A DNA stretch of 64,000 nucleotides from Sphingomonadales bacterium (GTDB taxonomy: Bacteria > Pseudomonadota > Alphaproteobacteria > Sphingomonadales > Sphingomonadaceae), in the NCBI GenBank assembly GCA_037131365.1, contig JBAXRE010000004.1, positions 71,508-135,507 of the forward strand, in the 5' to 3' direction. The notes under the pieces are model-generated. The model was not told the DNA's origin, did not search any database, and worked only from the letters and a program-made list of their open reading frames with translations. Both the position numbers and the translations under genes were made by a program. Shown in pieces: positions 46,068-53,279 of the stretch (positions are counted from its first letter, which is position 1; each line of letters opens with the position of its first letter).

Positions 46068-47477
46068 TTACGCACTGTAATACATATCAAATTCCACCGG
46101 CGCGGGGGTCATCTCCCAGCGCTGCACCTCTTCCATCTTGAGCTCGATATACGAGTCGATCTGGTCGTCGGTGAACACGCCGCCCTTGGTGAACACGGCG
46201 CGGCTCTTGTCGAGGGCGGCGAGCGCTTCCCGCAGCGAGGCGCACACCGTCGGCACCTTCTTCAGTTCGCGCGGCGGCAGGTCATAGAGGTTCTTGTCCA
46301 TGGCCGGGCCGGGGTGGATGCGGTTCTCGATACCGTCGAGGCCGGCCATGAGGAGCGCGGTGTAGGCCAGATACGGGTTGGCCAGGGCATCGGGGAACCG
46401 CACTTCGACGCGCTTGGACTTGGCGCCAGTGCCATAGGGGATGCGGCACGAGGCCGAGCGGTTGCGGCTGGAGTAGGCCAGCAGCACCGGCGCTTCAAAG
46501 CCCGGCACCAGCCGCTTGTAGCTGTTGGTGCCCGGGTTGGTGAACGCGTTGCAGGCCTTGGCGTGCTTGATGATGCCGCCGATGAAGAACAGCGCGGTCT
46601 CGCTGAGGCCGGCGTACTGGTCACCGGCGAACAGCGGGGTCTTGCCGTTCCAGATCGACAGGTGGGTGTGCATGCCGCTGCCGTTGTCGTCCTTGATCGG
46701 CTTGGGCATGAACGTCGCGGTCTTGCCATAGGCATGGGCGACCTGGTGCACGACATACTTGTACACCTGCATGCGGTCGGCGGTCTGCACCAGCGTGCCG
46801 AAGGTCAGGCCCAGTTCGTGCTGGGCGGAGGCGACCTCGTGGTGGTGCTTGTCGCAGGGCAGGCCCATCTCCAGCATGGTGGCGACCATCTCGCCGCGCA
46901 GATCCACCGCCGAATCGACCGGGGCGACCGGGAAATAGCCGCCCTTGGCGCGCGGGCGGTGGGCCATGTTGCCCTGTTCATACTCGCGGCCGGAGTTGGT
47001 CGGCAGCTCGATATCGTCGAGGTGGAAGAAGCCCTCGTTGTAGCCCAGGCCGAAGCGCACATCGTCGAACACGAAGAACTCGGCTTCCGGGCCGACATAG
47101 ACGGTGTCGCCGATGCCGCTGGCCTTCAGATAGGCTTCACCGCGCTTGGCGGTCGAACGCGGATCGCGGCCATAGAGCTGGCCGGTCGACGGTTCGACGA
47201 TGTCGCAGATCAGGATCAGCATCGGGGTGGCGGAGAAGGGATCGATGTAGGTGGCATCCAGATCCGGCATCAGGATCATGTCGCTCTCGTTGATCGCCTT
47301 CCAGCCGGCGATCGACGAGCCGTCGAACATGAAGCCATCGGTGAGCATGTCCTCATCGATGACGCCGGAGACCATGGTGAGGTGCTGCCACTTGCCCTTG
47401 GGATCGGTGAAGCGCAGGTCCACCCACTCGATGTCCTTCTCCTTGATCATGGCAAGAATGTCTGCGGCGGTCGCCAT
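46068..47477 (-). CDS. glnA: Glutamine synthetase type I, copy 1
   Basis: FDGSSI, HHHEVA, TFMPKP...[15 protein letters not shown], adenylylation loop DKNLYDLP. Confidence 0.98.
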
Positions 47478-47784
47478 CGGGCTGGTCCCTCGTTGGTGTT
47501 GATCGGATATGGTTATGGAACGCTGATACGACGCTTTAGCCGTCGTTGCAGGTCATGAAACTGGCGGTTCAGATGGCGTCGCTGTCGCGCTCACCGGTGC
47601 GGATGCGCACGGCCATGTCGATGGTGGACACGAAGATCTTGCCATCGCCAATCCGCCCGGTGCGCGCCGCGTTGGTGATCGCCTCCACCACCCGGTCCAC
47701 CTGGTCGTCGTCCACCACGACCTCCAGCTTCACCTTGGGCAGAAAATCCACCACATACTCCGCACCCCGGTAAAGCTCCGTATG
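46075..47784 (+). repeat. 1,710-bp direct repeat, copy A
   Basis: Matches 51447-53156 at offset 5,372 in every block compared, including the non-coding spacer. All alternative-frame ORFs in the track are also identical between copies. Confidence 0.93.
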
Positions 47785-47907
47785 GCCCTTCTGACGGCCA
47801 AAACCCTTCGCTTCGGTGGCCGTCATGCCTGACACGCCCACCTCATTGAGGGCTTCCTTCACTTCATCCAGTTTGAACGGCTTGATGACCGCTTCGATCT
47901 TCTTCAC
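47569..47907 (-). CDS. glnB: PII nitrogen regulatory protein, copy 1
   Basis: GTG start, [16 protein letters not shown]-loop [28 protein letters not shown]; 112 aa. Confidence 0.95.
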
Positions 47908-48122
47908 GGGATTCTCCTGCCCAGCTGACTGTTGGTAAGCGCCAGCAACATCCACGCACGCAAATTGCTCTACCGTCACTGAATTTTCGGGGTCATGCGG
48001 CAATCGGCAGGGCTGCGCCACCGTAATTTACCCCATCCGGCCGACCGGCGTGCTGCACTGCACCGTCAAATGCCTTATATTGCCGGTGTGCGCTGGCGGG
48101 CATCTAAGCCACGTCACGAGTC

Positions 48123-48139
48123 GGCATGCGCTTGGTGCA
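48123..48139. promoter_or_regulatory. Possible NtrC-type site between divergent glnB and amtB
   Basis: GGCATGCGCTTGGTGCA vs consensus TGCACC-N5-GGTGCA: perfect right half, degenerate left half. Confidence 0.3.
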
Positions 48140-48367
48140 TAGCCCGTATCGGCAGTTATCCGACGCTCTGTCCCGAGTTCGCGTCATCTAACGGCCAGCT
48201 GACGGCAGACGATCATTCGTCCGTATCGCCGTCGCCGACCCCGTGATGGTGTGCAAGTGGTCATCACGACATGGCCGCAGACGCATCGCTCAATTTGCCA
48301 GTGCCCCCTGTTGTATCGCGAAATGTGGTCGAGGGTGGTGACCTGGGTTTCAAAGCAGGGGAAATTG

Positions 48368-51136: not shown

Positions 51137-51187
51137 GCTGAGCGCCGGGGGGAGGCGCAGCGGTTATTGCTGCGCTTCCCCTCGGTC

Positions 51188-51388
51188 GCGCTGGCTGTGG
51201 AGCGTGGCCGGCGGCGGAGCCGCCGGGTCCATGGGGTGTGCTCCACGGAGAACAAGGAAGAGAAGGGAAGGGGGCGTGGCGGAGCCACGCCAGCCTGCCC
51301 CGGATGTGATCCGGGGGCGGACGAGTCAAAAAGGGCAGCCCTGAGGGGCTGCCCTTTTCGCTCGAGCCTGCCCCGGCGAAGGCCGGGG
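51188..51388. repeat. Palindromic repeat cluster plus terminator downstream of glnA copy 2
   Basis: Homologous to 45837-46006. Terminator AAAAA-GGGCAGCCC-TGAG-GGGCTGCCC-TTTT at 51328-51358; extra REP at 51371-51388. Confidence 0.75.
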
Positions 51389-51439
51389 TCCGAGCTTTGA
51401 CGAGTCGGCGGATAACGCTCTCGCGTTATCCGCGCGCCG

Positions 51440-52849
51440 TCATGCGCTGTAATACATATCAAATTCCACCGGCGCGGGGGTCATCTCCCAGCGCTGCACC
51501 TCTTCCATCTTGAGCTCGATATACGAGTCGATCTGGTCGTCGGTGAACACGCCGCCCTTGGTGAACACGGCGCGGCTCTTGTCGAGGGCGGCGAGCGCTT
51601 CCCGCAGCGAGGCGCACACCGTCGGCACCTTCTTCAGTTCGCGCGGCGGCAGGTCATAGAGGTTCTTGTCCATGGCCGGGCCGGGGTGGATGCGGTTCTC
51701 GATACCGTCGAGGCCGGCCATGAGGAGCGCGGTGTAGGCCAGATACGGGTTGGCCAGGGCATCGGGGAACCGCACTTCGACGCGCTTGGACTTGGCGCCA
51801 GTGCCATAGGGGATGCGGCACGAGGCCGAGCGGTTGCGGCTGGAGTAGGCCAGCAGCACCGGCGCTTCAAAGCCCGGCACCAGCCGCTTGTAGCTGTTGG
51901 TGCCCGGGTTGGTGAACGCGTTGCAGGCCTTGGCGTGCTTGATGATGCCGCCGATGAAGAACAGCGCGGTCTCGCTGAGGCCGGCGTACTGGTCACCGGC
52001 GAACAGCGGGGTCTTGCCGTTCCAGATCGACAGGTGGGTGTGCATGCCGCTGCCGTTGTCGTCCTTGATCGGCTTGGGCATGAACGTCGCGGTCTTGCCA
52101 TAGGCATGGGCGACCTGGTGCACGACATACTTGTACACCTGCATGCGGTCGGCGGTCTGCACCAGCGTGCCGAAGGTCAGGCCCAGTTCGTGCTGGGCGG
52201 AGGCGACCTCGTGGTGGTGCTTGTCGCAGGGCAGGCCCATCTCCAGCATGGTGGCGACCATCTCGCCGCGCAGATCCACCGCCGAATCGACCGGGGCGAC
52301 CGGGAAATAGCCGCCCTTGGCGCGCGGGCGGTGGGCCATGTTGCCCTGTTCATACTCGCGGCCGGAGTTGGTCGGCAGCTCGATATCGTCGAGGTGGAAG
52401 AAGCCCTCGTTGTAGCCCAGGCCGAAGCGCACATCGTCGAACACGAAGAACTCGGCTTCCGGGCCGACATAGACGGTGTCGCCGATGCCGCTGGCCTTCA
52501 GATAGGCTTCACCGCGCTTGGCGGTCGAACGCGGATCGCGGCCATAGAGCTGGCCGGTCGACGGTTCGACGATGTCGCAGATCAGGATCAGCATCGGGGT
52601 GGCGGAGAAGGGATCGATGTAGGTGGCATCCAGATCCGGCATCAGGATCATGTCGCTCTCGTTGATCGCCTTCCAGCCGGCGATCGACGAGCCGTCGAAC
52701 ATGAAGCCATCGGTGAGCATGTCCTCATCGATGACGCCGGAGACCATGGTGAGGTGCTGCCACTTGCCCTTGGGATCGGTGAAGCGCAGGTCCACCCACT
52801 CGATGTCCTTCTCCTTGATCATGGCAAGAATGTCTGCGGCGGTCGCCAT
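51440..52849 (-). CDS. glnA: Glutamine synthetase type I, copy 2 (protein identical to copy 1)
   Basis: Same 469-aa translation. Only the last codons differ (AGC GCA TGA vs AGT GCG TAA). Confidence 0.98.
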
Positions 52850-53156
52850 CGGGCTGGTCCCTCGTTGGTGTTGATCGGATATGGTTATGGAACGCTGATA
52901 CGACGCTTTAGCCGTCGTTGCAGGTCATGAAACTGGCGGTTCAGATGGCGTCGCTGTCGCGCTCACCGGTGCGGATGCGCACGGCCATGTCGATGGTGGA
53001 CACGAAGATCTTGCCATCGCCAATCCGCCCGGTGCGCGCCGCGTTGGTGATCGCCTCCACCACCCGGTCCACCTGGTCGTCGTCCACCACGACCTCCAGC
53101 TTCACCTTGGGCAGAAAATCCACCACATACTCCGCACCCCGGTAAAGCTCCGTATG
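51447..53156 (+). repeat. 1,710-bp direct repeat, copy B
   Basis: See copy A. First mismatch at 53157 (A) vs 47785 (G). Confidence 0.93.
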
Positions 53157-53279
53157 ACCCTTCTGACGGCCAAAACCCTTTGCTTCGGTCACAGTGATGC
53201 CGGAAACGCCGACATCGTGCAGCGCCTCTTTCACCTCGTCGAGCTTGAACGGCTTGATGACCGCTTCGACTTTCTTCAC
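52941..53279 (-). CDS. glnB: PII nitrogen regulatory protein, copy 2
   Basis: [33 protein letters not shown]; C-terminal part identical to copy 1. Confidence 0.95.

Follow-up and report, generated by a model that had tools for sequence, protein, structure and literature searches.

Merodiploidy in bacteria can result from Campbell-type integration, or from tandem duplication and amplification between direct repeats as in the Roth/Andersson model. In the tufA/tufB pair of Salmonella and E. coli the conversion tracts are contiguous, RecA-dependent and limited by mismatches (PMC5485169), and concerted evolution of tuf genes has been described for many other bacteria (Lathe and Bork 2001; Kondrashov 2007, as cited in PMC6053082). 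A survey of prokaryotes reported long-lasting concerted evolution of the PII gene (glnB) in Methanococcales and of 25 other genes; glnA has 0 occurrences in this survey and no Sphingomonadales case is included (Wang and Chen 2018; PMC6053082). In the literature nothing was found on glutamine synthetase (GS) of Sandarakinorhabdus, and no report of identical glnA pairs with amtB. Here we describe such a pair, in a window of 64,000 nucleotides (contig JBAXRE010000004.1, positions 71,508 to 135,507, assembly GCA_037131365.1; coordinates below are those of the window). The genome (G000) is that of a freshwater Sandarakinorhabdus, available as a draft assembly of 2.92 Mb in 32 contigs. Very probably, two old or foreign-derived glnBA copies have been homogenised at this locus by recurrent gene conversion.

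Base-by-base comparison showed an identical run without interruption at 46075-47784 and 51447-53156 (1,710 bp, offset 5,372, no strand assigned), exactly the direct repeat that an earlier, sequence-only reading of the window had claimed. Each copy holds glnB codons 42-112, the glnB-glnA spacer (47478-47568 in copy 1, minus strand, identical in both copies) and glnA minus its last 7 nt. The copies are separated by 3,662 bp of unique sequence (47785-51446) and are part of a wider paralogous block that was delimited with blastn (45836-47908 versus 51187-53280, ~2.07 kb, 95.5 % identical overall). It is the sole repeat of >1 kb with >95 % identity in the assembly. The gene content given in the earlier reading (two glnA, two glnB, amtB, a beta-barrel gene, and parE and an SDR gene as flanks) matches the profile-based gene calls. 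The type I GS of 469 aa encoded by glnA1 (46068-47477, minus strand) is identical to the protein encoded by glnA2 (51440-52849, minus strand), and both score 620.8 bits with the type I GlnA equivalog profile TIGR00653 (cut-off 429.15). The PII proteins of glnB1 (47569-47907, minus strand) and glnB2 (52941-53279, minus strand), both of 112 aa, differ by 5 residues, all in the first 30. The cluster is flanked by parE (43498-45654, minus strand) on one side and by the SDR gene (53445-54215, minus strand) on the other.

At both ends the identity stops abruptly and gives way to diverged paralogous sequence, again as had been claimed, with differences of ~18-35 %. The right edge lies inside glnB, between codons 41 and 42. 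Against 0 differences in 1,710 bp, the adjoining 5' 123 nt of glnB (to the GTG start) hold 22, which affect 19 of the 41 third codon positions and change 15 codons synonymously and 5 non-synonymously. The left edge lies 7 nt before the end of glnA, where the last codons and the stop read AGT GCG TAA in copy 1 and AGC GCA TGA in copy 2 (synonymous changes only). The 3' flanks that follow differ by ~18-35 % at this edge; as a whole, with their hairpin, intrinsic terminator and REP-like element, they are ~82 % identical, with two indels. The edge of block 1 (45836-46074, minus strand) comprises the last 7 nt of glnA1, a beta-type hairpin, the terminator and the REP-like element, and that of block 2 (51187-51446, minus strand) the glnA2 end, an alpha-type hairpin with a 20-nt insert, the terminator and the REP-like element. 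Divergence at the block edges equals or exceeds that of orthologues between species.

The diverged edges can be assigned to lineages. The 60-110 nt past the glnA stop occur as allelic types across the genus (G and L numbers stand for relatives of G000). A beta type (GCG TAA G..., CGCGTCGC) is found in copy 1 and behind the single glnA of G001, G005, L033 and L090, and an alpha type (GCA TGA C..., CGT-CAAAGC) in copy 2, in S. cyanobacteriorum TH057 (G018) and in G003. The 5' third of glnB1 carries residues N21, E22, M28 and A30 and groups with the PII-1 genes of G004, G007, L032 and L038; its identity is 89 % to the sole glnB of L090 versus 82 % to glnB2. The 3' two thirds, shared by both copies, group with the glnB2 lineage (L032 90 %, G001 89 %, G018 88 %, compared to 84 % for PII-1 genes). 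glnB1 is thus a chimera of two lineages, with codons 1-41 of the PII-1 lineage and codons 42-112 identical to glnB2. In glnA itself sliding-window identity was 87-96 % to all relatives, and no signal assigned the homogenised gene to one lineage.

Six arrangements of the region between parE and the SDR gene were found in the genus. In type A (G008, G017 and G009) only glnA-glnB lies between the two flank genes, in type B (G001 and G003) amtB is inserted, and in type C (S. oryzae G005, L031 and G006) the porin gene. Type D (G004, G007, L032, L033 and L038) has a lone PII-1 gene, amtB and the porin gene, and then glnA-glnB; a search for a glnA remnant past the PII-1 stop gave only 11 of 14 matching nt in G004 and G007 and a weak 30-nt match in L033. 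Type D may have lost glnA1, or type E may have gained it. Type E is the two-operon layout of G000 and G018. Type F (parE, glnA-glnB, amtB, SDR) is represented by metagenome contig L090 (Ga0164295_10000284, positions 3267-11686), which has a PII-1-type glnB divergent from amtB, a glnA and the beta flank, and is without porin or second operon. L090 is the single-copy counterpart of block 1. Judged by their edges, block 1 is an F-type allele and block 2 an A/C-type allele, now standing side by side.

The second genome with the two-operon layout is that of an isolate, S. cyanobacteriorum TH057. Its glnA and glnB lie on a 2,053-bp contig (C9 of that assembly), which is joined at each end to two further contigs by overlaps of 41 nt. 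On one side these are the parE contig and one end of a 3,511-bp amtB-porin contig (C24), on the other the SDR contig and the opposite end of C24. The Eulerian path runs parE, repeat, amtB-porin, repeat, SDR, with a 2,053-bp exact repeat at an offset of 5,482 and the same architecture as in G000. One boundary of the repeat is the glnB start codon and the other lies ~250 nt downstream of glnA; both are essentially the block ends of G000. The glnA genes of G000 and G018 differ at 108 of 1,407 nt (7.7 %), versus 0 between the assembled copies within each genome, the G018 copies being collapsed into one repeat contig. Copies within a genome are therefore closer to each other than orthologues between species are, the pattern by which concerted evolution is recognised. 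The duplication itself is older than the homogenised sequence, as is indicated by the diverged edges, by edge lineages that are common to other species, and by the same architecture in both genomes.

Independent sequence data were available from 11 runs, all used as Logan contigs, in which bubbles are popped and minor variants dropped. X1 (freshwater) and X2 are DNA metagenomes of different studies, and X3 and X4 are metatranscriptomes. All four copy-specific junctions were found in contigs of independent runs, and the graph branches exactly at 46075/51447 and 47784/53156. In X1 and X2, unique contigs (47755-50476/50484, 53127-54500 and 51275-51476) begin within the repeat, exactly 30 nt (k-1) from its ends, and repeat contigs end at 53156; the break at 47755 (47785-30) and contig ends at 51476 (51447+29), 53127 and 53156 were seen in X1, X2 and X3. 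A 543-nt contig of X2 crosses from the copy-1 flank into the repeat, and in X1 the whole repeat is tiled by contigs with 0 differences. Word depth in X1 was 23.8-30.5 (mean 27) for repeat pieces versus 10.9-18.1 (mean 15) for unique pieces, and in X2 33.8-49.7 (mean 44) versus 19.8-27.3 (mean 24). The depth check that had been proposed thus gave a ratio of ~1.8 in both metagenomes, as expected of two copies. The two copies are real.

Further evidence comes from a wastewater strain (X5-X7 and X9) that is ~2 % different from G000 in the SDR gene. This strain has G at 47510/52882 and G at 47779/53151 in both copies, while G000, X1 and X2 have T and C in both. Anchors are glnB1-specific contigs of 483 nt (X7) and 250 nt (X9) and glnB2-SDR contigs of 2,122 nt (X5) and 772 nt (X6); position 47779/53151 is also phased in X1 and X2, because contigs starting there at 47755 and 53127 extend into the unique sequence. 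In copy 2 of the wastewater strain the first two sites that tell the copies apart have the letters of copy 1 (53157 G and 53181 C); from 53190 the sequence is glnB2-like, with 0 further differences to 53295, which shifts the tract end of this strain by 25-33 nt. In G004 a patch of ~100 nt is nearly identical between PII-1 and glnB2, which shows that conversion recurs in the genus. Tract ends vary: in G000 the end is at glnB codon 41/42, in the wastewater strain 25-33 nt further, and in G018 it coincides with the glnB start codon. Taken together, the shared substitutions, the shifted ends and the G004 patch are the marks expected of repeated gene conversion with variable tracts. Homogenisation by gene conversion had been proposed from the G000 sequence; the diverged edges, the chimeric glnB1, the G018 pair and the wastewater tract shift all support it.

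We propose that the locus is a stable merodiploid for glnB-glnA, in which two 2.07-kb blocks in direct orientation surround an amtB-porin module. The block edges would descend from two allelic forms of the locus that circulate in Sandarakinorhabdus. The central 1,710 bp would be kept identical by recurrent intrachromosomal gene conversion, presumably RecA-dependent, and the tracts would stop where divergence is too high to sustain strand exchange. At least for the 3' part of glnB, conversion probably ran from copy 2 to copy 1. Homogenisation may be neutral and arise simply as breaks are repaired between direct repeats that lie close together, or it may be favoured because GS is a homo-dodecamer, for instance by avoiding mixed GS dodecamers. 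A selective reason for the second operon could be, for example, extra GS together with AmtB under nitrogen limitation.

With respect to origin, a Campbell-type insertion of a related locus had been suggested. A related locus is indeed indicated, since the copy-1 edges match L090 and the copy-2 edges, with their alpha-type flank and a glnB next to the SDR gene, match other species. The Campbell route, in which a circular fragment enters by one crossover, is however only one of three that fit equally. The locus could also have been duplicated in tandem and then lost part of the DNA by deletion, or foreign DNA could have entered by two crossovers, one in parE or the SDR gene and the other in the paralogous PII gene. 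No integrase, transposase, att or insertion sequence (IS) was found; the open reading frames between the copies are all glnB, amtB or porin, and there are no inverted repeats of at least 30 nt and no IS-like repeat.

Several observations weigh against homogenisation by recurrent conversion. The DNA of X2 has 4 variant sites within the repeat and the RNA contigs of X3 and X4 have 1-4, whereas ~6 kb of unique flank has none; the sites in these three runs are 46332, 46356, 46532/3, 46545, 46836 and 47187, and the probability that all four X2 sites fall in the repeat at a uniform rate is ~0.002. These may be strain differences, or hidden copy-specific single-nucleotide polymorphisms (SNPs) that were collapsed by assemblers. 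As Logan contigs drop minor variants, a handful of copy-specific SNPs is possible, and exact identity in one cell is the assembler's statement, resting on its resolution of a 1.7-kb exact repeat. 'Identical' is thus to be read as identical in the assembly and in reality at most a few sites apart; such hidden divergence is limited to few sites, far below the 18 % at the edges. The G018 graph fits equally with one chromosomal copy plus a 5.48-kb circle, and an independent origin of the G018 duplication is formally still conceivable. The strain-level evidence joins contigs of two samples from one study, which were judged to be of the same strain by 5 shared SNPs at 53296-53378.

The six arrangements are at odds with the flank-gene tree, itself a star-like radiation with weak support, and the amtB, porin and glnA trees also disagree with it. 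From this discordance a broader, tentative idea was derived, which we consider possible and on balance doubtful. The glnBA blocks, parE and the SDR gene would act as portable homology arms, through which plain homologous recombination adds, removes or exchanges amtB-porin and a second GS operon among Sandarakinorhabdus species. If true, a nitrogen-scavenging cassette would be mobile without mobility genes, and gene conversion would keep its arms recombination-competent.

A further proposal, from the sequence-only reading, was that the locus may be dynamic. Direct repeats of 1.7-2.05 kb are good RecA substrates, and crossovers between the glnBA copies could vary the dose of amtB-porin-glnBA with nitrogen supply, a process that would be compatible with gene conversion. 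The predicted geometry, in which one crossover leaves parE, glnA-glnB and SDR, corresponds to an arrangement that exists in the genus, the empty site of G008, G017 and G009, and the six arrangements of the locus point in the same direction. Copy-number variation as such was not borne out. Word depth of the amtB-porin spacer equals that of the outer flanks in X1 (15.1-15.8 versus 10.9-18.1) and X2 (24.8 versus 24.2-27.3) and gives no sign of amplification or frequent deletion, at the coarse resolution of contig depth, to which low-frequency variants are invisible. A crossover inside the repeat makes no new junction sequence, so that short-read contigs are blind to a low-frequency deletion or circle. 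The two-copy state was met in freshwater, in a second study, in wastewater samples and in a second species, and no strain with at least 3 copies occurs in the data at hand. The layout did not change among at least three strains or samples, nor in the second species, and a nitrogen-driven dose unit is accordingly improbable.

Identity could also reflect youth, if a recent duplication had copied glnB(3')-glnA from locus 2 into a lone PII-1 gene of D-type, as in G004 and G007, to give the present layout. D-type relatives are common (G004, G007, L032, L033 and L038), and the PII gene could serve as one homology anchor and the REP-like elements as the other. However, copy 1 has its own glnA end (AGT GCG TAA) and a beta flank, both absent downstream of PII-1 in all D-type genomes, and L090 provides a true single-copy operon of that lineage, with PII-1-type glnB, glnA and beta flank. 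As the glnA end and flank of copy 1 are of their own lineage, copy 1 clearly had its own glnA before homogenisation, which excludes a simple young duplication; moreover, G000 and G018 have the same block ends. We regard recent copying as quite unlikely. Least probable is an assembly artefact, with only one glnBA copy present or with clearly different copies collapsed and written twice, for which the draft state of the assembly (32 contigs), the popping of SNP bubbles by De Bruijn assemblers and the variant sites inside the repeat in X2, X3 and X4 might be adduced, but against which stand the four junctions in independent runs with exact branching and ~1.8-fold depth (X1 and X2), the difference-free tiling in X1 and the same topology in isolate G018.

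Having returned to two real, homogenised copies as the preferred reading, the genes and control regions between and around them can be considered. amtB (48251-49711, plus strand) encodes an ammonium transporter (421.5 bits with TIGR00836, cut-off 343, and a match to PF00909); its true start codon may lie further downstream than 48251, and a terminator follows at 49736-49763. The next gene (49904-51136, plus strand) encodes a BBP2 (OmpL-like) outer-membrane beta-barrel porin, which matched PF07642 over profile positions 2-339 of 339 (189.1 bits, cut-off 26.2, E = 1.7e-55). Homologues of 40-47 % identity occur in Acidobacteriota, Caulobacteraceae and others, and often adjoin amtB-glnK. This linkage to amtB in distant phyla suggests an ammonium-related role of the porin and fits an outer-membrane route for ammonium. 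Beyond the SDR gene lies an MFS transporter gene (54212-55849, minus strand).

The divergent control region of glnB1 and amtB (47908-48250, no strand assigned) shares only a motif of ~25 nt, GGGG-WAAAW-TACCGGTGGCGC, with the glnB2 promoter and otherwise bears no relation to it. The glnB2 promoter region (53280-53444, minus strand) has a sigma-70-like TTGTCA-17-GAAAAT. A scan for sigma-54 promoters in three intergenic regions gave no site of at least 8/11, except one within the amtB terminator, and a scan of 45.4-53.6 kb against Rfam gave no match at gathering score, its sole match being a sub-threshold, suhB/MmgR-like one upstream of parE (see below). One GS polypeptide would thus be made from two control regions, the one divergent with amtB-porin and the other an ordinary glnB promoter next to the SDR gene. 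Copy-specific RNA contigs for glnB1 and glnB2 show that both operons are transcribed in situ; depth was 13.9 and 7.1 for the glnB1-specific 5' end and 3.6 for the glnB2-specific part (53127-53259), and copy 1 is apparently transcribed more strongly than copy 2. Metatranscriptome contigs, which come from the X1 sample, also cover amtB (in both X3 and X4) and the porin gene. RNA contigs 46007-47093 and 46000-46979 run from the beta flank into glnA1 and are consistent with transcription of copy 1, although strict phasing over the repeat is not given by such contigs. Elsewhere in the G000 genome, at 43479-43811 of contig C9, lies a third, distant PII gene (59 % identity, glnK-like); in several relatives this glnK-like gene adjoins a second amtB (56-59 % identical).

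Some further elements were observed around the two operons. A hairpin lies 2-6 nt past the glnA stop (46030-46065 and 51395-51437), at the same position in all relatives. Its inner part, TAACGC-GCA-GCGTTA, is conserved; in the outer 5 bp, covariation is seen among species and also between copy 1 and copy 2 (GGACT/AGTCC, GCGGA/TCCGC, GTGGG/CCCAC, GGGCG/CGCCC, GCCCG/CGGGC and GGGGT/ACCCC). The hairpin may be a stability or processing element of the 3' untranslated region (3'UTR) or a 3'UTR-derived small RNA (sRNA), for which GlnZ, an enterobacterial 3'UTR-derived sRNA, is a model. The GC-rich, REP/MITE-like element of ~250 nt downstream of both glnA genes (45810-46055 and 51187-51364) is present at >10 further sites in the genome (contigs C1, C2, C3, C5, C6, C8, C10, C11 and C17), with 70-97 % identity between copies, and could act as a recombination anchor. 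Between parE and the glnA cluster an sRNA-like element (45625-45703, plus strand) has a CUCCCC loop, after which comes a strong terminator (45664-45689 with a T7 run). Its similarity to suhB/MmgR (RF00519) is sub-threshold (31.4 bits versus a gathering score of 41, E = 0.002), and it is conserved in G001, G004, G007, G018, L033, L038 and L090. MmgR is nitrogen-regulated in Sinorhizobium. Just past the terminator of this element a conserved palindrome, TGGTGCGATGCACCA (TGGTGCGRCGCACAA in relatives), is found at 45740-45756, and likewise at this place in G001, G004, G007 and L038. In B-type genomes the palindrome lies directly upstream of amtB, and it is a candidate binding site for a regulator.

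The assembly of G018 reports one glnA while its graph implies two. Short-read assemblies of the genus break at this locus, and glnA is split across contig ends in G012 and G006; other metagenome-assembled genomes may hide the same duplication. As short-read assemblies collapse the locus to contigs of 2 kb and 3.5 kb, they report too few copies of glnA, which is a warning for annotation and binning. S. cyanobacteriorum TH057 is a natural, culturable system in which conversion, deletion and amplification could be measured between 2-kb direct repeats with selectable genes of nitrogen assimilation. This strain could also show whether identical GS subunits from two promoters are selected.

Compared to Campbell or Roth/Andersson units, the locus is alike in that direct repeats of the target flank extra DNA and that one crossover restores a single copy and frees a 5,372-bp circle. 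It differs in having no vector, integrase, att or IS and no visible copy-number variation, and the diverged repeat edges indicate that the event is old rather than a transient amplification. As in Methanococcales, a PII gene is involved and the homogenised paralogues encode subunits of homo-oligomers; here, however, two thirds of glnB are homogenised while the 5' third has diverged. The likeness to tufA/tufB is closest. In both cases two old copies of a highly expressed core gene stand in different contexts with (nearly) identical synonymous sites, tracts end at the limits of homology, and the paralogues of one genome resemble each other more than they do the orthologues of other species. Unlike tufA/tufB, the unit is a segment of a two-gene operon (part of glnB, the spacer and glnA), and with a distance of just 3.7 kb and direct orientation the copies can also undergo deletion or amplification. 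Furthermore, the duplication is limited to part of one genus and was often lost, and one copy is of a different allelic lineage. Rather than a new kind of element, the locus is a clean natural example of a known process, gene conversion. For a wild population the evidence is unusually complete: diverged edges that date the copies, a chimeric PII gene, a second species with its own homogenised pair, and tract ends that differ between strains. With it glnB-glnA, a central metabolic operon, joins the few bacterial genes for which concerted evolution has been shown.

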